A stretch of DNA of 64,000 nucleotides. Origin: an uncultured cyanobacterium (GTDB lineage Bacteria > Cyanobacteriota > Cyanobacteriia > Cyanobacteriales > CAWUOF01). The translations under genes were made by a program, and so were the position numbers. Each line of letters opens with the position of its first letter. Within the stretch, counting starts at the first letter, position 1. This document shows, one piece after another, positions 5,542-27,856 of the stretch. Location: positions 1,870,831 through 1,934,830 of the forward strand of contig CAVUSO010000001.1 of the NCBI GenBank assembly GCA_963744145.1, read 5' to 3'. Below the pieces are notes generated by a model that worked only from the letters and a program-made list of their open reading frames with translations, ran no database searches and was not told the origin of the DNA.

Positions 5542-6099
5542 ATGTACTTAACACCAAAACAAGTGTACGAGAAGTATGGGTATCATCCCAAAACACTAGC
5601 AGACTGGGCTGATGAAGGGAAAATTCCTTGCATCAAATCAGCGGGAGGACATCGCAGATATCCTGTATCAGCGCTGGAGAACATAAAATGTGAAGCTAGA
5701 ATTGCTTTTGCTCAAGTAGTGACTTACGCTCGAGTTTCAACTCCATCCCAAAAAGATGACTTGCAGACACAAATCAATTACCTAGTTTCAAGATATCCTA
5801 ACTGCGAATGCGTTAGTGACATTGGTTCAGGACTGAATTTCAAGCGAAAAAAGTTCTTGAAATTGATGCAGAGAATAGCCAATCAAGAAATCCAAACCTT
5901 AGTAGTGGCACATAAAGATAGGTTATGCAGATTTGGCTTTGATTTCGTTGAGTGGTTCTGCAACCTGAACAACTGCGAAATCGTTGTCCTGAACAATAGC
6001 TATCAATCCCCCCAACAAGAGTTTTTGGAAGACTTCATGGCGATTATGCACTGTTTTAGTGCTGGTAGGGGCGTATTGCTATACGCCCGTACTTTTTGA
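5542..6099 (+). CDS. tnpA: IS607-family transposase TnpA (serine recombinase with N-terminal MerR-like HTH)
   Basis: N-terminal HTH (YLTPKQVYEKYGYHPKTLADWADEGKI). Catalytic YARVSTPSQKDDLQTQ with the Ser nucleophile in the resolvase-like domain. Its C-terminal codons are formed by a copy of the 22-28-bp palindrome GGGGCGTATTGC(T/A)ATACGCCC. Confidence 0.75.
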   Translation: MYLTPKQVYEKYGYHPKTLADWADEGKIPCIKSAGGHRRYPVSALENIKCEARIAFAQVVTYARVSTPSQKDDLQTQINYLVSRYPNCECVSDIGSGLNFKRKKFLKLMQRIANQEIQTLVVAHKDRLCRFGFDFVEWFCNLNNCEIVVLNNSYQSPQQEFLEDFMAIMHCFSAGRGVLLYARTF

Positions 6100-6192: not shown

Positions 6193-7527
6193 GTGTTAAA
6201 GCCCAAGAAAGGATTTTCAATAGCCACTAAATCGGTCAAAGCCAAGCTTGAGCGAACAGGAGTGGATCTACAAGAAAGTAAAGATGCCTACAACGAAGTG
6301 GTGCATTTCTATTTCTTGCTGATTAGAGAAGATCCTAATGGGTTGACGATTCCATTAGTAAATAATGGGGGATGGCGCTACTACGAAATCAAGACAGTAG
6401 AGAACGAGTTTATCAAGGGATTCCCTGCGCCATTGAAAAGAGCCGCAATTCGTCAAGCGATTGGTGCTTACGAATCCTGGTCTAGCAATTACCAAAAATG
6501 GTTGAAACGTCCTCAGAAAATGAAACACCATAAACCACCAGTACAGCCCAGGAAATTTAACTTTAACCCCCAATATGATTCTGGGATGTGGAAGGAAGAT
6601 AATGGTGCTTCTATATTGTTAAAAGTATTGGTAAACGGCGCATGGAAATGGATTAAACATCAATACCAAAGTCCAGAAATTCAGTCAGACTGGGTAAAAT
6701 GTTCTCCCAGAGTTCAGGTGCAGTCTAATTCTTTTTGGTTAGTGTTCCCCATTGAGAAATATGTACCTGCAACCGGAGGAATTAAAAATATCATGTCAAA
6801 ACCGAAGGGGCGTATTGCAATACGCCCCTTCAGAACTTGCGGGATTGATCTGGATTTAGATCAACACATTGCGATCTGCACTGTGCTAGAAACCAACGAC
6901 AGAGGCGAATCGACAGAAGTTGCTAGATTGTTTATTAATCAGTCACGCCATGTAGCTCGTAGGAAGCGGAATCTAGGACAGATTGCCATCAAGATGAGTC
7001 AAACTGGCATTATTTCCAAGGGCTTTGCTAATCATCAATGGCAGAAGTTATCGAAGCGAGAAATGGAGTTTTCCAGGGATGTGTCAAGGCAGATTGTAGA
7101 ATTTGCTAAATATTGGCAAGTCCAAATTATCAGCTTTGAGCATCTAGGTAATTTGCGTCCCCAAAAAGGAAAATACTCCAAACGCTCTAATCAGAAACGT
7201 GCTTATTGGTTAAAGAGTAAAGTTTACGAGCAAGTGAAAAGAATTGCTTTTCAAGACTACGGAATATTGGTGACAAGAGTTAACCCAAAAAATACTAGCA
7301 AACTCAGTCCCAACGGTTTACCTGTTTGGAGAGGTCATCAATTTCCTAGCTCTATATTGGAGTTTTTAGAATATCAATCAGGAGCAAATTTAGTGGCTAC
7401 GCCTGATGGTTACAGAGCTCATTCTGGACTTAATGCCGCTCGCAATATCGCGCTCAAAGCGATTAAGCGTAATTTACCAGAAGTTACACTTAATCTCAAA
7501 AAAAAGCCCAAAGCAGTAATGCTTTAG
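6193..7527 (+). CDS. tnpB: TnpB (OrfB) RNA-guided-endonuclease-family protein, RuvC-like
   Basis: 444 aa. Central GIDLDLDQHIAICTV (RuvC-I Asp); C-terminal zinc-finger region and the RuvC-III-like ...HSGLNAARNIALKA typical of TnpB/Cas12 ancestors. Follows tnpA with an ~90-nt spacer. Confidence 0.75.
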   Translation: MLKPKKGFSIATKSVKAKLERTGVDLQESKDAYNEVVHFYFLLIREDPNGLTIPLVNNGGWRYYEIKTVENEFIKGFPAPLKRAAIRQAIGAYESWSSNYQKWLKRPQKMKHHKPPVQPRKFNFNPQYDSGMWKEDNGASILLKVLVNGAWKWIKHQYQSPEIQSDWVKCSPRVQVQSNSFWLVFPIEKYVPATGGIKNIMSKPKGRIAIRPFRTCGIDLDLDQHIAICTVLETNDRGESTEVARLFINQSRHVARRKRNLGQIAIKMSQTGIISKGFANHQWQKLSKREMEFSRDVSRQIVEFAKYWQVQIISFEHLGNLRPQKGKYSKRSNQKRAYWLKSKVYEQVKRIAFQDYGILVTRVNPKNTSKLSPNGLPVWRGHQFPSSILEFLEYQSGANLVATPDGYRAHSGLNAARNIALKAIKRNLPEVTLNLKKKPKAVML

Positions 7528-8211: not shown

Positions 8212-11200
8212 TTAGCCTTTGTAGTCTGGCATCATACATTTGTCGCTATCGCATCCAGCTGGTCCTTCTACCATTGAATATCCCAGATCGTAGCGGCGCA
8301 AAGCTGTATAAAAGTCATTAATTTTTTGTCTGGCTTTCACTTCTTTTTGTAAACGTTTATAAGTATCCTGATCGATTTTCTCAAAGGGTAGTCTTGGGAA
8401 AGGAGCATTAAAACGCGCAAACAAAGCTGCACTAATATACCCTTCATCATTTTGAATGGTTTGGTAAATACGTTGACCAACTACATCAATTTCTGCTTCA
8501 GTTAATTCGATCGTTGCGCTAGTATTATGGGTGGTATAATAACGTTGCACTTGCATATAGAAATCAAACTGAGCTAAAGCAGAAAACTTTTCAATTTCAA
8601 TCTCATCTGCTCCAGGTAAGTTTGTCCAGCATACTTCGGTGGGAATTTCGACGAGCCAAGCAGAGCAACGTGGATCGAAGGGATCATTCAGTAAGTTACC
8701 ATTTTCATCTTTGTCGTCTTGAGATGGTACAACATTATAACCGTAGTCAATACAGGCTAATGCGACTGGATCGTTTTTTGCAAAAGTAATCCGACGTAGA
8801 AAACGCTGGGATTTGGGAGGGTGCCATCCTGGAGAACCTCCAGTCAGAAGTACCTTAGTACCAGAAGGTTGAACTGTAGTACATCGATTTGGTTTATTCA
8901 GATGGTGCCGATCGCAATAATCCCAAACTACCTGATGGGCGATATTTTGCCAATGACTTAAATACTCTTGTTCACGTCGTTTAAATTCTAATCCTAAAGT
9001 TGTTTCTGGTCGTCCTTCTACCCACCAGCGCAACCATTCTACTCCAAAAGCTTTCACAAAGAAATCAAATAAACCCCCAAAAGATACACCAACGATCGGA
9101 TCAATTTCACGAGATTTTTGAAATCTTGATTCTAAAAATCCTCGTTTTAATAAAGCCGCAACTGATAGAGCCGCAGCGGTAAAAGCATCTTCCTGTTCTT
9201 TCCAGTCATTAGGATCAAGCAAATCGAGGTGAACTTGAGATAGATTACAATGAAAATCCGTGCCAATAATTTCACCACAATTATGAGCGACAAAACCATT
9301 CGCATCAAATCTTGATCCACTTGGTACGGTACAATCGTAAACAGGGGCTTCACCAGCGGGAATAATTGCACTTATTTCAACAGTAAATCTTTCTCTGGTT
9401 AGCTCTCCCTCCTCACTTGCTAATGCTAAGGCTAATTGTTGAGATTTTGTTGATTCTTGAAACCCAATTAATTGCTGAAATACAATAATATTGTCGTTGC
9501 TAATGACTAAATTATGATTTGTTTGAGCTAAGTTAGGTTGACGATCAGACAATTTACTGATCTCTTCATGCTGATAATTTTGGTAAATTGTTGCTGCAAT
9601 TCCTAGACGGAGTAACATTCTCTGAATTGCTGCTAAGTTAGATAAATTGCTTTGAGCTAACTGAATGATGATCTCTTTACTTTCAGTAATATTGATATTA
9701 CCATTAGCATCAAATAAGCTTTTTAAAAAACCTCGATAGAATTCATAACTAGCTTTTTCAACTTCGGGAGTAATTTCTTGAAATCCTGGCTCTAATCCGA
9801 ATTTACTTGCTACTTTTTCCCAACTAACAGTAGATGTTATATGCTGGGTGTCAAGTGCTATAATTCTGTTCTTTTTCCTGAACCCTGACAACTGTTTGGT
9901 ATGGCTCCAGAAATTACCAAGTAACCATCCTTCGGCAAAAGTTCCATTTCCATCCCAAGGTTGGAGAGCGCGGTGATTATGAATTAAAATGCGATCGCCC
10001 GGTTTTAAATCTTGAACTTCACACCATTCTGAACACTGTTGTTTTTGAGTTTGAGCTGTGACTTTTAAGACTTGGTGATTTTCGGTTAGTCTTAAGGTAT
10101 AACCTGGTTTAGTGTGGAGTTGAACAACAGGTTTTACTCCAGTAAAGAAAAAGCCTTTAGCAGTTGTACTAAATAACTCTCCATTGACATAAACACTATG
10201 TTGAATACCAATTAATTCTTTGACTTGTCTAGCTCCATACTCAGTATGAATCCAAGTATCTTCAGTAATACAAGGATTCAGAGCATACCGAGCTAAACGA
10301 TGCTCTATCTCATGATCAGAAAGTTGAGGATTAAGTTGTCGTAACCATTGTTCTGCTTGATCCTGCTCATAAGCTCTCAAGAAATCAGTTTTTAATTCAG
10401 GAGTTTTTAGTAAATCGCGATTTGCTCTAGCTACTGCTTCTCCAGCCCATTGAATTGCTCCTTCACCAGAATAATATTGTTGACGTACAGCTTCAAGACA
10501 TTCATCAAAAGTAGGTTTGTGATGGAAAACACGAGTATGATTACTCATTCTCAGCGCGTCTCTTTGTGGATCAATGCGCCATTTTCCTGATTCATCCTGT
10601 TGCCAAAGGTTAGCTTTTGCGTTAGTAAATAGAGGATCGTTACTATCACCTTGACGCATTCCGGCACTTCTTCTAATATTACCTGCAACTACACAAGCAG
10701 CAGCTTCATCAATTAATAAGCAGCATTCTACCGAATTTAGTTTTCTTCCCACCGCTTGATTCAGTACAGCAACGCAACGCTGATACAATTCTGATAACTT
10801 AATCGGATTAGCAACACCACCAAAACCTTGTAGAACTTCTCCAGCAGGACGTACATCACTTAAGTCAATCGATACATTAATTTCTCCAGCAAATCTTTCA
10901 TCACTAGATAATTCTAATAAAGTTTGATAGGACTTAACCCAACCTTCACGACTATCTCCTACATAGATATATACGTGATGATTGTCAATTTTTACTTCTG
11001 TTGTTTGACGACGTAATTCTGGAATTGTCAGTCCAATCTCACCTGGCATATTGATGGTAAGATGATTACGAATTGGTGGAAGTTGGTTAATATATTTTGG
11101 CTCTAATACAGCCCCAGTTCCACAACCCATCATTGCCAATTCCATCATAATTCCAAAGGATTCCCAGTCAGTAATATCGCGACTGGTACAGTTAAATCCT

Positions 11201-11490
11201 CCAGAGAAGTTTTCGGGTTTCTCAAACCATTTTGTACCACCAATCCAGAGGAAACGGGCACCAACTGTAGTTTTTAGTTGACTTTGCATCCGCTCAATGA
11301 TCTGTGCTTCTTGAGGAGTAAGTTCACCGAGTTGGGTTAATCCTTGTAAGGTGCGATCGCACACTTCTTTCCAGGTTTCTCGTCCCGTTTCTTGACGACG
11401 ACTGTAAGTCCTAAAAAATACTGGATTTGCTGCTGGAGCTGTGGATGGGAATTCCCAATTATTACTGATTCTTTCTAGTTCTCGCACCAT
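8212..11490 (-). CDS. nrdJ: adenosylcobalamin-dependent (class II) ribonucleotide reductase interrupted by an intein
   Basis: The 1092-aa ORF has exteins with class II RNR features, including a cysteine-rich C-terminal tail (GPAGCDSDKCMMPDYKG). The ORF is interrupted by a 331-aa insertion beginning C-I-T-E-D-T-W-I-H-T and ending F-V-A-H-N followed by Cys. These are canonical intein block A and block G splice junctions. Confidence 0.8.
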   Translation of the reverse strand: MVRELERISNNWEFPSTAPAANPVFFRTYSRRQETGRETWKEVCDRTLQGLTQLGELTPQEAQIIERMQSQLKTTVGARFLWIGGTKWFEKPENFSGGFNCTSRDITDWESFGIMMELAMMGCGTGAVLEPKYINQLPPIRNHLTINMPGEIGLTIPELRRQTTEVKIDNHHVYIYVGDSREGWVKSYQTLLELSSDERFAGEINVSIDLSDVRPAGEVLQGFGGVANPIKLSELYQRCVAVLNQAVGRKLNSVECCLLIDEAAACVVAGNIRRSAGMRQGDSNDPLFTNAKANLWQQDESGKWRIDPQRDALRMSNHTRVFHHKPTFDECLEAVRQQYYSGEGAIQWAGEAVARANRDLLKTPELKTDFLRAYEQDQAEQWLRQLNPQLSDHEIEHRLARYALNPCITEDTWIHTEYGARQVKELIGIQHSVYVNGELFSTTAKGFFFTGVKPVVQLHTKPGYTLRLTENHQVLKVTAQTQKQQCSEWCEVQDLKPGDRILIHNHRALQPWDGNGTFAEGWLLGNFWSHTKQLSGFRKKNRIIALDTQHITSTVSWEKVASKFGLEPGFQEITPEVEKASYEFYRGFLKSLFDANGNINITESKEIIIQLAQSNLSNLAAIQRMLLRLGIAATIYQNYQHEEISKLSDRQPNLAQTNHNLVISNDNIIVFQQLIGFQESTKSQQLALALASEEGELTRERFTVEISAIIPAGEAPVYDCTVPSGSRFDANGFVAHNCGEIIGTDFHCNLSQVHLDLLDPNDWKEQEDAFTAAALSVAALLKRGFLESRFQKSREIDPIVGVSFGGLFDFFVKAFGVEWLRWWVEGRPETTLGLEFKRREQEYLSHWQNIAHQVVWDYCDRHHLNKPNRCTTVQPSGTKVLLTGGSPGWHPPKSQRFLRRITFAKNDPVALACIDYGYNVVPSQDDKDENGNLLNDPFDPRCSAWLVEIPTEVCWTNLPGADEIEIEKFSALAQFDFYMQVQRYYTTHNTSATIELTEAEIDVVGQRIYQTIQNDEGYISAALFARFNAPFPRLPFEKIDQDTYKRLQKEVKARQKINDFYTALRRYDLGYSMVEGPAGCDSDKCMMPDYKG
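9280..10272 (-). other. intein (331 aa) with LAGLIDADG-type homing endonuclease domain inside nrdJ
   Basis: Boundaries mapped at codon level: Cys407 codon at 10270-10272 and Asn737 codon at 9280-9282, with the +1 Cys at 9277-9279. Internal motifs GWLLGNFWSH and GFLKSLFDANGNIN resemble the two LAGLIDADG blocks. Confidence 0.75.
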
Positions 11491-11892
11491 AATCTATCCT
11501 GTGATGGCATATATAGCGTTTACAAGGTCGCGGACGTTTGATTGTAACACTATAACTAGATATTTGGCAAAACCAGATCCAAAACTGATCGATTGACCCG
11601 TTCCTGATTAGACTCACCAGGTTGGGGCAATCGACTCATGGACGATTGCTAGGGTGAATTGAGCAAGCGATTACATAAGTTACACTACATGAATGCAATT
11701 AGAATGAGAATTAGTGGAGCTCTTCAGTAAATGGGGTGGTGAGAAAGATGAGGGAGCATCCCACTTTTTGACTAAGTAGAAATACTTAGAGCCAAATCAC
11801 CATTCAAGTAAGCACACCTTAGTTTCAACATTTGAGAGACATTTTTTTGTTCCCATTGTGAGCCAGTAATTTTCATCCTCAACCCAATCTGT

Positions 11893-12572
11893 TTAATCAA
11901 AGACTCTACTCCCCCCTACCCAGGTGCAAATTCCTAATTCTTGATATAATTGATAATCTGGTATCCTTGATTGGTGTTTGTTGAGATAATTCTGGAAATT
12001 CCGAGTCTGTTTATTGTCTAATCCGGCAAATTCCTCTTCAGCTTCTTTTACTAATCCTTGCGTAGGGGCGTATTGCAATACGCCCCTACTTGACTTTTTT
12101 TAATCTTTTACTTGACACCTCGACTTTATATAAATTTTCGGTTAAATGATACCAATCCAAAATTTTTCTTCTTTGAGCAGAACTACCAATCTGATTAATT
12201 ATCTTCCAAACTCCATCATGACCATCGTCTAAACGTAGGGGCGTATTGCAATACGCCCGTACTAATATATTACTCAAAGGTTGTTGATTTACCCAAGCGA
12301 TTAATTTTTCATCTTGTTGAAATAATGCTCCTCCTACCCGGTCATGAATCTTGATTGCAATATAATTGTTTCCATTCACTTTTTTCTCCTAATGGTGTTC
12401 TAATTCTGACACTTCCTCCATCTACACTTAATGCTTCTGCTCTTTTAGTGATTTCGGTTAATTCTACTTGATGATTTAATCCTAAACGATGTTGTGTGCT
12501 ATGGGTAGGGGCGCAAGAGCAATACGCCCCTACGATACCTGTTAAAAGTTCCAAATCTCTTTCTACATTCAT
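11893..12572 (-). pseudogene. degraded transposase gene in three ORF fragments, interrupted by palindromic repeat copies
   Basis: Three short consecutive minus-strand ORFs (76, 97 and 61 aa). C-terminal-like transposase motifs are ILDWYHLTENLYKV and RIPDYQLYQELGICTWVGGS. Three copies of GTAGGGGCGTATTGCAATACGCCCCTAC or variants lie at 12065-12086, 12237-12258 and 12507-12530, at or within the fragment boundaries. Confidence 0.5.
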
Positions 12573-13015
12573 AAATGATTCTAAAGCTGATTAAGATTAA
12601 AGAACATTTTCCTAAGATTGGACTTAAACGAGTTTTTTTCTTTAATTTCAGTCTTTCCGCTTGTGAGAGTTGATAATGAGATTTCCCCTACACAACTTTT
12701 AATCGTTCTTAAAGTCACTAAATTCCTCAGTTGGTGTATATTTATATAGAATCGCGGCTACTGCTGCTAAATTTTTTTCAATAATCATTTGTTCTTCTGG
12801 TGTCATTTGTTCTTTCGGTGTGATTTTTTGGTGTCAATTAATTGCTTGTTGTACTTTTCTATTGTCCTGGATTTAATTTTTCATTACAATAAGTATTTTT
12901 ATTTATTGCAGAAGTGGATGCTCCCAGACCTGGGTGACCACGCTCTTTTTGTTCACCCTGATATAAATCAACAATATTGGCATCAATCCGCAATTTACCT
13001 AGGTAATGAAAATTG

Positions 13016-13515
13016 ACAACTCTGTTCTGTCAAGGACTCGCCTTTTGTCTGGGAGTAAGTTAAGCTATATCGGGAGTATTCCCACCAATTAAATTCCGTT
13101 GATGAGAGTGTATAGGAGTGAGGAGTGCGAAAACGGTATCCCCATAAACCAAGTTTATCGGTGGTGTCATCCCAGTCAGCATCTGGTCTAAATTGGACGA
13201 CACCCTCGAATGATCCTAAAAGTAGTGAACCTAATTCTCAAAATAAGCCCCCAAGTCTATCTTTACCCTTTACTAATTTACCCAGAAAGCCGATCGCCCC
13301 GCCAGAACCACCTATTTATTCGGATCACGTTGGTACTCAGTCCCAGGAAAATAGTTTCTCTCCACCTAACTTAGAGACTAGATCCAAAACTCCACCCAGT
13401 CGTTCTCTGAAAGCGAATCCAGGGTTGGGAAGACCGAGTTTGGAGATGGGACAACAATCGATCGCTAATCATCAGCGCGATCGCTCTCGTCGTTCTGGTC
13501 GCTCATCTGATCGAC
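13016..13515 (+). repeat. 500-bp direct repeat, copy 1 (near-identical to 17876-18375)
   Basis: Near-identical to 17876-18375 by direct comparison, apart from a few substitutions. Covers the promoter region and first ~130 codons of the beta-lactamase-like gene. Confidence 0.9.
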
Positions 13516-13607
13516 AGAAAAATACTCTGATAAAACGTTCTGGATCTGGATTTAGAAACTTTGAAAATTTCCGAATAAGATGCCTGTTAAACTGGCATTT
13601 TACTTAG
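13125..13607 (+). pseudogene. truncated 5' duplicate of the class A beta-lactamase-like gene (160-aa ORF; catalytic domain absent)
   Basis: The first 130 residues match those of the 564-aa protein at 17986-19680. Sequence diverges after RSSDR at 13516 and terminates shortly after. Confidence 0.7.
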
Positions 13608-13795
13608 TATTTTAGCATAACAAGTACCGAAGAGCCAAAATTATTTAATTAGGATATAATTTCTACTCAATGAACCGTATAATTACTATATAAATCTAAC
13701 AATAGCCCGTAAAATCAGGATAAAATTATTGAACAATTTCTCAACAAGGTTTACAATCGATATTAGGAAAACTATGGATGTGAGACTTTAAAAAT

Positions 13796-15151
13796 ATGAA
13801 AATTCAGCAAATATCCGTTATGGGTTTATTCGGAATTTTTGACCATGTAATTCCATTGAATATGGATGAGAGAATCACGATTATTCATGGCCCAAATGGT
13901 TTTGGAAAAACAGCAATATTGAGAATGGTGAATGGATTCTTCAACTCTCGATACTCAGTGTTTCGCACTATCCCATTTAGCAAATTTCGAGTTGAGTTTG
14001 ATAATGATAGTTTTGTTGAGGTGATAAAAACTTCTGACAGTTTGGAGAAAACGAAGAAAATAGAGGATATAACTCTTTACTTTCACAGCACTAATGAAAA
14101 AGAAGATCCTTTTGTTTTGAAAGGATCAAATAACCCTTCAGATATTGGCATTCCAGTAGATATTTTGGATGACATAATACCTGAACTTCGCCGAGTAGGG
14201 TCTAAAAATTGGCGGTATATTCCGACTGGTGAAATCCTTTCTTTAATCGAAGTTATAGATCGATTTGAAGACTTTTTGCCTACAAAAACAAAATTGCGAG
14301 AAGAACCTGAGTGGTTAGAAAAATTAAAGCATGATATTAATGTTCGCTTGATAGAATCGCAGCGTTTACTAAACGTTGATTCTAGCTATTCTTCAAGAGA
14401 ATATGCTAGGAAAAATTCAATGTTACCAACTGTTTCTGCCTATTCTAAAGAGCTTGCACAATATATTGAATCTAAACTTGCTGAATATGGTACAACTTCC
14501 CAAGCACTCGATCGCACATTTCCTGCGAGGGTAGTAAAACAACAGCTATCTCCTGATTTAACAGAAGAAAAACTTCGTCATCAGCTAAATCAGCTTGAAG
14601 AAACTCGCTCTCGTCTGATCGAGGTAGGTTTATTAGATAAGGATGAAAATTCAGACTTTCAAATTCAGTCTCAATCAATAGATGAAAGCACCAAAAATAT
14701 CTTATCAGTGTATGTTGATGATGTAGAAAAGAAGCTAAACGTTTTCAGTGAAATTGCCAGCAAGATTGATCTGTTAAGAAGAATTATTAATATTAAATTT
14801 GCTTATTCCTACAAAGAAATGAATTTCAACAAGGAAAAAGGGTTTGTTTTTAAGACAAGTTATAACACTTCTTCTAATACAGATACTATTTCTCCAACAG
14901 ATTTATCATCTGGCGAGCAACATGAGTTAATTCTTCTCTACGAACTACTATTTAAAGTTCAACCTAATTCTCTCGTCTTGATTGATGAACCTGAATTATC
15001 GCTTCATGTAGGATGGCAAAAGCAGTTTCTAAAAGACTTGCAAGAAATCATAAAACTTGCAGATTTAGATATTCTAATGGCTACTCACTCACCAGACATC
15101 ATTCAAGATCGCTGGGATTTAACTGTAGGTCTGAAAGGGATAGAAAAATGA
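13796..15151 (+). CDS. ABC-type (SMC/OLD-like) ATPase, AriA-like component of a PARIS or split-OLD-type defence pair
   Basis: Walker A HGPNGFGKTAIL. ABC signature-like LSSGEQHEL, Walker B SLVLIDEPELSLH and H-loop MATHSPD at the C-terminus, with a long coiled-coil-like insertion between. The stop overlaps the next gene's start (ATGA at 15148-15151). Confidence 0.65.
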   Translation: MKIQQISVMGLFGIFDHVIPLNMDERITIIHGPNGFGKTAILRMVNGFFNSRYSVFRTIPFSKFRVEFDNDSFVEVIKTSDSLEKTKKIEDITLYFHSTNEKEDPFVLKGSNNPSDIGIPVDILDDIIPELRRVGSKNWRYIPTGEILSLIEVIDRFEDFLPTKTKLREEPEWLEKLKHDINVRLIESQRLLNVDSSYSSREYARKNSMLPTVSAYSKELAQYIESKLAEYGTTSQALDRTFPARVVKQQLSPDLTEEKLRHQLNQLEETRSRLIEVGLLDKDENSDFQIQSQSIDESTKNILSVYVDDVEKKLNVFSEIASKIDLLRRIINIKFAYSYKEMNFNKEKGFVFKTSYNTSSNTDTISPTDLSSGEQHELILLYELLFKVQPNSLVLIDEPELSLHVGWQKQFLKDLQEIIKLADLDILMATHSPDIIQDRWDLTVGLKGIEK

Positions 15152-15999
15152 GGGAGGAGCTTACATTTTACCGTTATGCCAATGCCATTCTACTAGAACG
15201 TGAAACATTTATAGGCACTTTTTTATTAGTTGAAGGCGACTTGGATAAGACTTTTTATAAGCGTTTTGTAGTCAGTGAATGTGAATTAAAGAATTATTCA
15301 GGCAAATCAAACGTTATTGAGGTTCTAAATATTTTGGAGAAAGAAAATTTTCCGGGAGTTTTAGCCATTGTTGATGCAGATTTTGACTATCTCGACAGTT
15401 CATCGTACAATAGCCCTAATTTGATTCGTACAGATACTCATGATCTTGAAACTATGCTGCTTAATTCATTTGCGCTAGATAAGGTAATTAATGAGCTTGG
15501 TTCCCAGGAGAAAATTACTAGCTTTGGTCGAGATATAAGAACAGTATTGATTGAATCTGGTCGAGTAGTTGGGTATCTTCGCTGGGTTTCTCAATTGGAT
15601 GGATTAAACTTAACCTTTAATGACATCAAATTTAGTAAGTTTATTGATGAGAACACTATGAAAATTGATGAACTTAAACTAATTCAAGAAGTAAAAAATA
15701 AATCCCAAAAATTGGCATTGAAAAGTGAAGATTTACAACAAAGGATCACAAACCAAAAAAGTAGCAACCATGATCCTTGGCAAGTTTGCTGTGGTCACGA
15801 TTTGGTAGAAATTTTATCCATCGGCTTACGCAAAGCAATTGGCACCAAAGATGCTAACGATGTTAAACCGGAAAATCTTGAGCGTAATTTACGACTTGCT
15901 TATGAAGAAACTTATTTTTGTAAGACACAAATTTACTTTTCTGTTCGCACCTGGGAAAGTAACAATAGACCATTTAGAGTTTTGCGGAATGAAATATAA
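15148..15999 (+). CDS. Toprim-like (DUF4435/OLD-nuclease-like) protein, AriB-like partner
   Basis: 283 aa starting MREELTFY. LLVEGDLDKTFY and later AIVDADFDYLD fit the Toprim E...DxD signature of OLD-family nucleases and PARIS AriB. Translationally coupled to the upstream ATPase. The family assignment is an inference from motifs. Confidence 0.55.
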   Translation: MREELTFYRYANAILLERETFIGTFLLVEGDLDKTFYKRFVVSECELKNYSGKSNVIEVLNILEKENFPGVLAIVDADFDYLDSSSYNSPNLIRTDTHDLETMLLNSFALDKVINELGSQEKITSFGRDIRTVLIESGRVVGYLRWVSQLDGLNLTFNDIKFSKFIDENTMKIDELKLIQEVKNKSQKLALKSEDLQQRITNQKSSNHDPWQVCCGHDLVEILSIGLRKAIGTKDANDVKPENLERNLRLAYEETYFCKTQIYFSVRTWESNNRPFRVLRNEI

Positions 16000-16104
16000 A
16001 TTCTTGTTGTTCGCAGATAACCTCTTACTAGGTTAATACGTTAAGGAGTCGCAATATCGGTTATGCTATATCATGTACTATAACTCACACAATATTGTCA
16101 AATT

Positions 16105-17193
16105 ATGCTGACGACGCTAAAAATTGAAAATTTCCGTTGCTTCAAAACGTTTGAACTTCAGCAGCTTGGTCAATTAAATCTGCTTGTTGGTACTAATAAT
16201 AGTGGTAAGACATCAATCTTAGAAGCTGTTCAACTTCTTACCTCTTCATCTAACCTGGAAACATTATTAGAAGTAATGATTGGGAGAGGTGAGTATATTT
16301 GGAGTGATGAACCTGATAGTCGTTATGATCCAACTCGTGGGGTCGATCTCGATATTCACCATCTTTTTTATGGTCATAAGATTGATCTAGGTAGCAGGTT
16401 TTCAATATTTGGTAACAACCATAACGATAGGAAAGAAATAGCTGTATCTGTAGCAGAAACAGAACAACTTAACTTGTTTAAAGAGCTACGAGAGTTGGTA
16501 TTAGTTATTCAGTGGTTGGGACAGGAAAATATCAAATTACCATTATCCTCTAAAGAAGGTTTACAGTCAGATTACCTAAGACTTGTTCATAGGGATTATA
16601 AAAATTCAAGACTAAGAACAGAATTTGTCACATCTTCTTCATTGACAACTAGGAAAATGATGGAACTTTTTGATAAATTTGTTCTTACACCGGAAGAGGA
16701 TCTTATTACCGAGGCACTCCAGACAATAGAACCCAGAATTGAACGTATTGCTTTAATTGGTTCCGCCAGAAATTATAGTAGATATGCTGGTTCGCGTAGC
16801 GGCTTTGTTGTACGGCTTTCTAATAGCGATCAACGTATACCTATTGGTAGTATGGGAGATGGAATATGGCGAATATTGGGACTAATATTAGCAATTGTTA
16901 ATTCAAGAAATGGTTTTTTGCTAGTTGATGAAATTGACACTGGGTTTCACTTTAGTGCGATGTCTGATATGTGGAAATTAATCTGGAAAACAGCTAAACG
17001 GCTTAATGTTCAAGTTTTTGCTACAACTCATAGTAGCGATTGCTGGACAAGTCTAGCAGCAATTGCAAGTACCGAAACCCCAAGTGAAGAAGGTATTACC
17101 ATTCAAAGGATTGAGAAAGATAAGTCAAGAAGTATTGTCTTTACCGAACGGGAAGTTGTAATCGCTGCTGAACGAGGAATTGAGGTGAGGTAG
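16105..17193 (+). CDS. second ABC-type ATPase (AAA_21-like)
   Basis: Walker A VGTNNSGKTSILEAV. Signature-like GSMGDGIWRIL, Walker B FLLVDEIDTGFH, and H-loop ATTHSSD. Confidence 0.65.
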   Translation: MLTTLKIENFRCFKTFELQQLGQLNLLVGTNNSGKTSILEAVQLLTSSSNLETLLEVMIGRGEYIWSDEPDSRYDPTRGVDLDIHHLFYGHKIDLGSRFSIFGNNHNDRKEIAVSVAETEQLNLFKELRELVLVIQWLGQENIKLPLSSKEGLQSDYLRLVHRDYKNSRLRTEFVTSSSLTTRKMMELFDKFVLTPEEDLITEALQTIEPRIERIALIGSARNYSRYAGSRSGFVVRLSNSDQRIPIGSMGDGIWRILGLILAIVNSRNGFLLVDEIDTGFHFSAMSDMWKLIWKTAKRLNVQVFATTHSSDCWTSLAAIASTETPSEEGITIQRIEKDKSRSIVFTEREVVIAAERGIEVR

Positions 17194-17196
17194 AGA

Positions 17197-17853
17197 ATGT
17201 CTGTGGCTAAAATTCATCCAAAGATTCTTCTTGTAGAGGGAGATGAAGATCGTCGTGTAATACCACAACTAATTGAAGCAAATGGTGTAAATTGGAAATC
17301 AAAATATAACCCAGTTGTATATATTGATGCTTGTGGTGGCTATGAAAAGTTAGTCAAGCCTGATGTAATTCCAACTCAACTAAAAGCATCTGGGCTTTCT
17401 ACTCTTGGCATAATGATTGATGCAGATGATAATCCTTTAGCGCGTTGGCAAAGCATTAGAAATGCCAGTCTGAAAAGTATTCCTGATCTTCCAGATATTC
17501 TACCAGAAGACGGATTGATCCATAGCACTTCTGATGGAATTAAATTTGGAATTTGGATGATGCCTGATAACCAAATGCGTGGGATGTTGGAAACTTTTTT
17601 GACATACATGATTCCCACCGGTAATGAAGCACTTTGGCAGTTTGCTCAAGATACAGTTAAAGAGGCAAAAAAGAAAGGTGCTGTGTTTACAGAACCTCAT
17701 TTTGATAAAGCAAACATTTATACTTGGTTAGCTTGGCAAGATCCTCCAGGACGACAACTACATCAAGCAATTATGCAACGCATCCTCAATCCAAAACACC
17801 CTGATGCTCAAAGGTTTGTGACTTGGTTTAAAAACTTGTATGATTTGACTTAA
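17197..17853 (+). CDS. small Toprim-like protein (possibly DUF4276-like) partner of the second ATPase
   Basis: 218 aa. ILLVEGDEDRRVIPQL near the N-terminus and GIMIDADDNPL later, the same E...DxD arrangement as the AriB-like protein. Starts 3 nt after the ATPase stop. Confidence 0.5.
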   Translation: MSVAKIHPKILLVEGDEDRRVIPQLIEANGVNWKSKYNPVVYIDACGGYEKLVKPDVIPTQLKASGLSTLGIMIDADDNPLARWQSIRNASLKSIPDLPDILPEDGLIHSTSDGIKFGIWMMPDNQMRGMLETFLTYMIPTGNEALWQFAQDTVKEAKKKGAVFTEPHFDKANIYTWLAWQDPPGRQLHQAIMQRILNPKHPDAQRFVTWFKNLYDLT

Positions 17854-17875
17854 GGTGCTGCCGATTACATAGATG

Positions 17876-18375
17876 GAAAACTCTGTTCTGTCAAGGACTC
17901 GCCTTTTGTCTGGGAGTAAGTTAAGCTATATCGGGAGTATTCCCACCAATTAAATTCCGTTGATGAGAGTGTATAGGAGTGAGGAGTGCGAAAACGGTAT
18001 CCCCATAAACCAAGTTTATCGGTGGTGTCATCCCAGTCAGAATCTGGTCTAAATTGGACGACACCCTTGAATGATCCTAAAAGTAGTGAACCTAATTCTC
18101 AAAATAAGCCCCCAAGTCTATCTTTACCCTTTACTAATTTACCCAGAAAGCCGATCGCCCCGCCAGAACCACCTATTTATTCGGATCACGTTGGTACTCA
18201 GTCCCAGGAAAATAGTTTCTCTCCACCTAATTTAGAGACTAAATCCAAAACTCCACCCAGTCGTTCTCTGAAAGCGAATCCAGGGTTGGGAAGACCGAGT
18301 TTGGAGATGGGACAACAATCGATCGCTAATCATCAGCGCGATCGCTCTCGTCGTTCTGGTCGCTCATCTGATCGA
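17876..18375 (+). repeat. 500-bp direct repeat, copy 2 (5' region of the intact beta-lactamase-like gene)
   Basis: Near-identical to 13016-13515. Confidence 0.9.
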
Positions 18376-27777: not shown

Positions 27778-27828
27778 AAAATAGGGCGTTGCTGATTTAC
27801 AGTATAAAGAAATAATCTGTAGGGGCGT

Positions 27829-27856
27829 ATTGCAATACGCCCCTACGAATAAAAAT
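27829..27856 (+). repeat. 28-bp perfect palindrome GTAGGGGCGTATTGCAATACGCCCCTAC (dispersed family; other copies at 6067-6088, 6807-6828, 12065-12086, 12237-12258, 12507-12530 variant, 22161-22190 variant)
   Basis: Read directly from the sequence. Seven copies within 64 kb. Confidence 0.85.

Follow-up and report, generated by a model that had tools for sequence, protein, structure and literature searches.

Introduction

In the PARIS system of Escherichia coli, a hexamer of AriA holds AriB, and a phage protein such as Ocr, together with ATP, frees it. The freed AriB dimerises and cleaves the host lysine tRNA, and this blocks translation (PMC11464382, PMC10802264). An AriA6-AriB3 complex, this mode of release, the tRNA cleavage and protection against phage are known from the E. 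coli system only. PARIS is reported in 5.2% of genomes and is recognised by an AAA_15 gene (at least 32 bits) or an AAA_21 gene (at least 27 bits) adjacent to a DUF4435 gene (at least 27 bits) (PMC9122126). A published alignment of AriB already includes cyanobacterial sequences, from Nostoc and Caldora (PMC10802264), so the presence of PARIS in cyanobacteria had been known. In a published tree of the AAA15/21 defence ATPases the partner proteins are DUF4435, RloB, DUF4276 and Toprim-Old; DUF3226 is not listed among them (PMC11464382). In AbiL, the model of the small OLD-like Toprim protein superimposes on 6NJV (PMC13064643). PADLOC nominated 145 PDC systems as candidates for phage defence, still untested, on the ground that members lie within BREX, DISARM or type I restriction-modification loci (bioRxiv 10.1101/2024.01.29.577857). 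Here we describe a locus in which a PARIS pair (pair 1) and a pair of the PDC-M38 family (pair 2) stand in tandem between two direct repeats. It lies in a stretch of 64,000 nucleotides (the window) from an uncultured filamentous cyanobacterium (GenBank assembly GCA_963744145.1, contig CAVUSO010000001.1, positions 1,870,831 to 1,934,830).

The block occupies 13.0-18.4 kb of the window, with a divergent ribonucleotide reductase (RNR) gene on one side and a conserved beta-lactamase-like gene on the other. An original prediction, made from the DNA letters and their translations, had singled it out as a cassette of two ATPase and Toprim pairs. Our data indicate, with a probability of roughly 0.7, that it is a chromosomal islet of two unrelated modules, PARIS and PDC-M38, each made of a sensor ATPase and a Toprim protein, and that it was placed by duplicative insertion.

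Results

Gene content of the block

The four genes of the block lie on the plus strand (Table 1), and the Walker A, signature, Walker B, H-loop and LLVEGD...DADxD strings are present in their translations. The original prediction of four co-oriented genes, with an ATGA overlap in one pair, a 3-nt gap in the other and ATPase and Toprim motifs throughout, was confirmed. Pfam also bore out its view that both large proteins are ABC-type defence ATPases (AAA_15/AAA_21) and not transporter subunits, and structure prediction with fold comparison bore out that both small proteins are of the Toprim type.

Table 1. Positions of the two gene pairs, the direct repeats and the flanking features in the window (aa, amino acids; IS, insertion sequence).
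Feature	Position	Strand	Basis or remark
Decayed ISKra4-family IS with small palindromic elements inserted	11752..12925	-	blastn, tblastn, terminal repeats
Direct repeat copy 1	13012..13514	+	110 bp of upstream region and first 130 codons of the beta-lactamase-like gene
Truncated beta-lactamase-like open reading frame fused in frame to the last 29 ISL3 transposase codons	13125..13607	+	translation, tblastn
ISL3-family IS 3' terminal remnant, ~122 bp	13515..13636	+	DNA identity, alignment to Anabaena cylindrica ISL3
ariA-like ABC ATPase, 451 aa, predicted PARIS sensor/scaffold	13796..15151	+	Pfam, PADLOC, PDB sequence matches
ariB-like DUF4435 Toprim nuclease, 283 aa, predicted PARIS effector	15148..15999	+	Pfam, PADLOC, fold
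PDC-M38A, AbiLi-like ABC ATPase, 362 aa	16105..17193	+	PADLOC, Pfam
PDC-M38B, DUF3226 protein, 218 aa, predicted OLD-like Toprim fold	17197..17853	+	3-nt gap after M38A
Direct repeat copy 2	17873..18375	+	5' part of the intact beta-lactamase-like gene
Class-A beta-lactamase-related serine hydrolase gene, intact, 564 aa	17986..19680	+	Pfam Beta-lactamase2, 8.4e-69

Pair 1 is assigned to PARIS

The ariA-like protein matches Pfam AAA_15 over its full length (2e-21, 77.5 bits), AAA_21 (58.4 bits) and two PADLOC AriA profiles (1.2e-24 and 3.8e-21), and its best PDB sequence matches are AriA entries 8ux9/8v45 (E = 3e-13), which are of nearly equal length. The ariB-like protein matches Pfam DUF4435 (1.3e-15, 58.3 bits) and PADLOC AriB (7.5e-25). 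Because the AAA_15, AAA_21 and DUF4435 scores exceed the published thresholds, pair 1 is classified by its domain content as a canonical type I PARIS system. The two genes share an ATGA, in which the ariA-like stop codon (15149-15151) overlaps the ariB-like ATG at 15148.

Sequence-level PDB searches were empty for the ariB-like protein and also for M38B, the small protein of pair 2, which had no match as a single sequence or as a profile; a fold search was therefore needed for both. The AlphaFold2 model of the ariB-like protein, made with 62 homologues, had a predicted local distance difference test score (pLDDT) of 80.9. Its only confident PDB matches were 8ux9_A (E = 4e-4, probability 1.0, template modelling (TM) score 0.50) and 8v46_D, which are AriB from the two PARIS cryo-electron microscopy entries. 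Across the 62 homologues, E29 is conserved in at least 90% and D76 and D78 are invariant. The link of this protein to AriB is thus one of profiles and predicted fold. The original prediction had called the pairs PARIS-like, with a Toprim layout like that of AriB (DUF4435), and for pair 1 this agrees with the Pfam, PADLOC and model results.

Pair 2 is assigned to PDC-M38

Pair 2 corresponds, by its profile matches, to PDC-M38, a candidate that is already catalogued in PADLOC. M38A matches the PDC-M38A profile from end to end (1.6e-93, residues 1-362 against 1-383 of 383). Its next-best PADLOC match is AbiLi (1.7e-49, residues 1-362 against 1-340 of 340), and its best PADLOC matches include AbiLi, AriA, PtuA and GajA. 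In Pfam it matches AAA_15 (8.9e-27) and AAA_21 (1.7e-16). M38B matches PDC-M38B (1.4e-78, residues 6-216 against 11-219 of 220) and Pfam DUF3226 (1.9e-72), and its gene follows that of M38A after 3 nt (end at 17193, start at 17197). When the Pfam scan of M38B was opened to E ≤ 10, DUF3226 was joined by a sub-threshold OLD-like_TOPRIM match only, and this weak match recurs in 60 of 61 members of the M38B family. The suggestion that pair 2 might belong to the AAA_21 and DUF4276 pairing was not borne out, and an assignment to AAA_21 + DUF4276/MADS was rejected: M38B is a DUF3226 protein, without a DUF4276 match even at that relaxed limit. The NCBIfam MADS3 match of M38A spans residues 1-49 only. 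A search of the literature library that was covered found no paper mentioning DUF3226 or PDC-M38.

The AlphaFold2 model of M38B had a pLDDT of 75.9, with 80-93 in the N-terminal alpha/beta domain and weaker values in the C-terminal helices. Its closest structures were 6nk8 and 6njv, both C-terminal regions of OLD proteins, and next in order came Thermus OLD, retron Eco2, DnaG primase and GajA. Foldseek gave a sole confident match, the C-terminal region of Xanthomonas OLD (6njv, probability 1.0). E14, D75 and D77 are invariant across 61 homologues. The model supports a Toprim reading of M38B, and split OLD-like is a fair description of the pair.

Two other assignments were rejected. The ATPases are not ABC transporter subunits: ABC_tran scored 22.5 bits against the ariA-like protein, under the 25-bit cut-off and over the P-loop only, Pfam gave no ABC_tran match for M38A, and the block contains no membrane-protein gene and no adjacent permease. 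Nor are the two pairs recent duplicates of each other, since their BLASTP similarity is at motif level only. Promoter and terminator scans gave counts no higher than in shuffled sequence and were not used.

The modules occur separately in other cyanobacteria

Many cyanobacterial genera have close homologues of the two small proteins, at 63-72% identity for the ariB-like protein and 65-78% for M38B. The PARIS pair of Planktothrix, Aerosakkonema and Nostoc has the same 4-nt overlap and stands by itself amid unrelated housekeeping genes. The M38 pair, too, stands alone in three other cyanobacterial genomes, with the same 3-nt gap, and there adjoins mutS, transketolase and other genes. DNA homology between the block and other cyanobacterial loci is limited to 13751-15998 and 16034-17864, close around the coding regions. 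At 50% identity the M38B family falls into about 2,190 clusters, whose members are all stand-alone proteins of about 215-230 aa. Eighty metagenomic loci were gathered with the M38B profile, and among the 54 with enough upstream sequence, 53 have the ATPase gene directly upstream. The sole exception, on metagenome contig Ga0209208_10002628, has no detectable M38A homologue directly upstream; it could be a case of divergence, a frameshift or a true orphan. Given the upstream ATPase in 53 of 54 loci and the constant gap and overlap, the pairing within each module is obligate. Each pair is, as judged from these comparisons, a self-contained module that is found alone in many other cyanobacteria.

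The tandem itself is local to this genome. An AriB-like or beta-lactamase-like gene was found within 6 kb of none of the 80 metagenomic M38B loci, and none of 92 other loci inspected has PARIS and M38 side by side. Adjacent defence systems are the normal state of defence islands. The original prediction held that the block is not a described defence-island arrangement, and this was overstated: both modules are catalogued and adjacency is usual, so that only this particular pairing (0 of 92) is out of the ordinary. The best non-self identities of both modules are 72-78% for amino acids and 72-79% for DNA, compared with 62% for the adjacent serine hydrolase. The higher conservation of the modules across cyanobacterial orders suggests that they have spread horizontally among cyanobacteria.

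Distant relatives of pair 2 occur on plasmids. An ATP-binding protein and DUF3226 pair with 23-31% identity is essentially the sole cargo of the 6.4-kb MOBQ plasmid pRHBSTW-00398_4 of Citrobacter. In the small mobilisable MOBQ plasmid pAHTJR2 of Acinetobacter, where such a distant pair is again the main or sole cargo, the ATPase is split and the pair lies beside a BrnT/BrnA toxin-antitoxin pair. Such plasmids would fit a role in plasmid addiction, and pair 2 might stand beside PARIS as something other than an immune system: a toxin-antitoxin pair, an addiction module, or an ATPase and nuclease pair of the DNA-repair type. The M38 modules that stand alone beside mutS, transketolase and other housekeeping genes agree with this, as do the candidate status of PDC-M38 and the lack of published defence evidence in our search. 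We nevertheless consider a non-immune pair 2 unlikely. M38A belongs to the AAA_15/21 defence clade, with AbiLi, AriA, PtuA and GajA among its best matches, the family was nominated from BREX, DISARM and type I restriction-modification loci (bioRxiv 10.1101/2024.01.29.577857), and in this genome it lies 105 bp from PARIS. Moreover, PARIS itself acts as a toxin-antitoxin pair and yet defends (PMC10802264), so that one reading does not shut out the other.

The direct repeats are real and one of them is joined to an IS interior

When the region from 11.5 to 18.4 kb was compared with the whole window by blastn, one long direct repeat pair was found, of 503 bp and 98.8% identity, in keeping with the near-identical repeats of about 500 bp that had been reported to flank the four genes. 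Two mismatches fall among the first seven bases of the left edge, and the solid core of the upstream copy is 13019-13514. The core contains four mismatches (13180, 13207, 13370 and 13381), three nonsynonymous and one synonymous in the frame that starts at 13125 in copy 1 and at 17986 in copy 2, and the final 133 bp of the copies do not differ. This similarity is far beyond chance. The downstream copy begins 9 bp past position 17864, where DNA homology to other M38 modules stops.

A short-read contig (Logan ERR11571142, 2,165 bp) that was assembled independently is 100% identical to 16211-18375, and its right end falls exactly at 18375, the right edge of repeat copy 2. A de Bruijn assembler would halt at this point if the reads held two different continuations past the repeat, and the end of the contig at 18375 is consistent with a branch point of the graph. 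Because the contig stops at this branch point, the duplication is unlikely to be an assembly artefact; the copies also differ at four internal sites, and an artefact was rejected. The left end of the same contig, at 16211, lies inside M38A.

The downstream copy of the beta-lactamase-like gene is intact and the upstream copy is truncated, as the original prediction had it. The intact gene has more than 2,500 homologues, the best with 62% identity, which are mostly cyanobacterial and mostly named serine hydrolase; by this comparison it is a conserved cyanobacterial gene of housekeeping type. The truncated copy continues in frame into an ISL3 transposase end. The resulting chimeric open reading frame encodes 160 aa, its translation ends in ...KNTLIKRSGSGFRNFENFRIRCLLNWHFT, and its tail has 76% identity to aa 379-407 of a 407-aa ISL3 transposase (tblastn). 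It is probably a pseudogene fragment, and the in-frame fusion may be a chance event. At the DNA level the ISL3 remnant is 84-86% identical to ISL3 elements of Nostoc and Anabaena plasmids at their 3' ends. Its right end, at 13636, is a typical terminal inverted repeat, ...GTACCGAAGAGCC, and its left edge, which abuts repeat copy 1 (position uncertain by about 4 bp), is internal to the IS. Since the repeat is joined to the interior of an IS and not to its end, the junction is an illegitimate, non-homologous join that was not made by a transposase. This fusion at the left junction was overlooked in the original prediction. Self-comparison gave no full ISL3 copy and no further cassette fragment elsewhere in the window.

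Proposed routes of insertion

Two events would account for this arrangement. In one, homologous DNA would have been exchanged within the ~500 bp that open the beta-lactamase-like locus. In the other, position ~500 of the locus would have been joined illegitimately to the inside of an ISL3 element formerly situated upstream of ariA. The donor would already have carried the cassette directly upstream of the ~500-bp segment, because the repeat starts 9 bp past the end of M38 homology. The incoming DNA could have been a 4.86-kb circle integrating in the manner of Campbell, or a linear fragment undergoing one-sided, homology-facilitated integration, which would have crossed over by homology on its downstream side and been joined illegitimately at its broken left end. 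The product of the linear route would be the same as that of the circle, and our firm commitment is limited to one homologous exchange and one illegitimate join.

The original prediction took the order segment, cassette, segment and rest of the gene as the signature of Campbell integration. The topology is indeed compatible with it; it is not unique to it, and an illegitimate join inside an IS is involved. Campbell integration is one of several routes of equal parsimony, and a linear fragment or a chain of IS-linked steps would leave the same product. A strict Campbell history, in which a non-replicating circle carrying the segment, the ISL3 remnant, PARIS and M38 recombined once with the chromosomal segment and so duplicated it, is possible, with less than an even chance. 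The order of the parts, the 99%-identical repeats and the intact downstream gene agree with it, and the closeness of the repeat to the end of M38 homology fits a donor in which the cassette abutted the segment. However, making the circle would itself require the illegitimate join between the gene and the ISL3 interior, the block has no replication, integrase or transfer function, and the linear fragment would leave an identical product. An empty site was also not found, the relatives being at 54-62% identity only. When genome contigs were scanned with the beta-lactamase-like protein, the yield was two relatives only (54-60% identity), and the best match in the protein database had 62%. Exact-sequence look-ups gave nothing for the intact and truncated products, and otherwise the same strain only.

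The surroundings of the block are rich in IS remnants, namely the ISKra4 and ISL3 remnants of Table 1 and a resolvase-type IS farther upstream, and a history of several IS-driven steps within one lineage has to be weighed against insertion by two events. The cassette with a complete ISL3 element might first have disrupted the beta-lactamase-like gene, or come to adjoin a second copy of it. An intact copy would then have been regained or retained, and a deletion from the gene interior to the ISL3 interior would have made the left junction, with the repeats as leftovers. A junction inside an IS resembles a deletion endpoint, and the four substitutions between the copies, three of them nonsynonymous, suggest that the duplication is not very recent. 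We regard this history as unlikely, since it needs at least three events instead of the two of the other routes. Self-comparison found no second IS copy, no target-site duplication and no cassette homology to the left of the ISKra4 remnant.

Whichever topology applied, the 99%-identical repeats would permit a RecA-mediated pop-out of the block that restores a single intact gene. If the ISKra4 remnant and the block are subtracted, about 457 bp are left between the divergent start codons of the RNR and beta-lactamase-like genes, a plausible ancestral empty arrangement.

Base composition

The cassette has a guanine-plus-cytosine (GC) content of 35.5%, compared with a window mean of 38.7%, which places it at the 4th percentile of windows of the same size (SD 1.8%). 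The low value stems from the PARIS pair, at 34.4%, while pair 2, at 37.5%, is ordinary. Several housekeeping genes in the window are as AT-rich as the cassette, and GC at third codon positions (GC3) and the Karlin codon-bias distance of all four genes are within the range of genes of similar length. To the eye the AT contrast looks larger than it is, in great part owing to the high GC content of the repeats (45-46%). Of the AT-richness on which the original prediction had built a case for horizontal acquisition, a weak contrast in GC content stands, while codon usage is unremarkable. Strong compositional foreignness was not supported by GC, GC3 or Karlin distance.

Neighbourhood of the block

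The decayed ISKra4 element separates the RNR gene from the upstream repeat. It has blastn matches to ISKra4 transposase genes of cyanobacterial plasmids and matches both ends of a Dolichospermum element; its terminal inverted repeats GGGAGCATCC are at 11752-11761 and 12916-12925, and its tblastn fragments are interrupted by stop codons. It was considered as the maker of the left repeat boundary and rejected, as it stops at 12925, 86 bp short of the repeat. A perfect palindrome of about 30 nt, CGTAGGGGCGTATTGCAATACGCCCCTAC, has at least five copies in the window (12061-12090, 12234-12263, 6065-6094, 6803-6829 and 27819-27851), two of which lie within the decayed ISKra4 element. It has the look of a dispersed hairpin repeat of small size or of an element akin to miniature inverted-repeat transposable elements. 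The RNR gene (8212-11490, minus strand) is of class II, the B12-dependent type, and is split by an intein that carries a LAGLIDADG homing endonuclease domain (Pfam RNR-II_ins_dom, Intein_splicing and LAGLIDADG_3). Farther upstream, a serine-recombinase gene (5542-6099, plus strand; Resolvase and HTH_17) is followed by an open reading frame of 444 aa without a Pfam match (6193-7527, plus strand). This layout resembles an IS607-type element and is a further sign of a region rich in mobile DNA.

Discussion

Our data indicate that two unrelated pairs of a sensor ATPase and a Toprim protein, PARIS and PDC-M38, form an islet between two copies of the start of a conserved chromosomal gene. Several observations weigh against this interpretation. 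The ariB-like protein has no sequence-level PDB match to solved AriB, either as a single sequence or as a profile. The M38B model is of low confidence in its C-terminal half, and its TM-scores to OLD are just ~0.43. PDC-M38 is among the 145 untested candidates (bioRxiv 10.1101/2024.01.29.577857), its neighbours in other genomes are mostly housekeeping genes and not defence islands, and M38B was not found on viral contigs. With regard to the insertion, the nearest relative of the flanking gene has 62% amino-acid identity, and composition lends little support to a recent foreign origin.

The domain content, motifs, family assignments, predicted folds and module boundaries are results of this analysis; defence activity, the working of module 2 and the insertion route are inferred from them. 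The trigger, target and protective effect of module 1 can be proposed by analogy with the E. coli system. A hexamer of the ariA-like protein would keep the ariB-like protein inactive. A phage protein, for example an anti-restriction DNA mimic, would bind AriA and lead to the ATP-dependent release of AriB, which would then dimerise and cut a host tRNA, so that translation stops and the infection is aborted. Module 2 might follow the same logic, with an ATPase that senses infection and licenses a Toprim nuclease. We infer this because its ATPase is of the AbiLi/AriA type, its partner is predicted to fold like the Toprim region of OLD and keeps the metal ligands intact, the two genes are strictly paired and translationally linked, relatives are plasmid cargo, and the module lies 105 bp from PARIS.

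A more far-reaching proposal is that PDC-M38 represents a distinct branch of split OLD-like immunity, with its own trigger and target, and that it moves together with PARIS as a 4.9-kb block that pops out and re-inserts through the captured 500-bp segment. We think this rather unlikely as a whole. If it were true, defence cassettes would be transferred between cyanobacterial strains by homology and without an integrase. The locus offers a compact cyanobacterial pair of ABC-ATPase and Toprim modules that can be cloned together or apart for testing. The junction, with its 500-bp duplication of a host gene and its join inside an IS, is a record of how a defence module may be inserted, and possibly lost, without mobility genes. 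PARIS in cyanobacteria and PDC-M38 as a catalogued candidate were known already, and the locus adds one member and one testable candidate to them. The juxtaposition is unusual, and the duplication with its junction inside an IS is a neat if small piece of genome archaeology; the components are ordinary and the current understanding is unchanged.

The closest described system to pair 1 is PARIS of the E. coli B185 type (OLD-like class 4). Like it, pair 1 is an overlapping two-gene operon, in which the gene for an AAA_15 ABC ATPase (about 450 aa) is followed by that for a DUF4435 Toprim protein (about 285 aa). It scores above the detection thresholds, and its closest solved fold is AriB and its closest solved sequence AriA. 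Unlike it, pair 1 is chromosomal and does not lie in a P4 or P2 hotspot, and the module is 63-72% identical across many cyanobacteria. Its relation to the E. coli proteins is only distant, with no phmmer match for AriB. Pair 2 matches the two PDC-M38 profiles from end to end (1.6e-93 and 1.4e-78), its genes having the same order and orientation, and no feature sets it apart from that family. It also resembles AbiL of Lactococcus (AbiLi and AbiLii) and RloAB, which join an ABC ATPase to a small OLD-like Toprim protein, and M38A matches AbiLi end to end (1.7e-49). In contrast to these, M38B is a DUF3226 protein, outside the AbiLii/RloB family, and has no AbiLii match at E ≤ 0.01.

[quoted passage not shown] M38B is predicted to have an OLD-type Toprim catalytic region, 6nk8 and 6njv being its closest structures. 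OLD and GajA carry both domains in one polypeptide, whereas here they are encoded by two translationally linked genes with their own start codons. As to the insertion, the locus is like the Campbell-type single-crossover integration of suicide plasmids and integrative circles, in that direct repeats of the homologous segment flank the insert and one copy of the gene is truncated and one intact. It is unlike such integration in having no vector, integrase or replication functions, and in one junction, which is illegitimate and lies inside an IS remnant.

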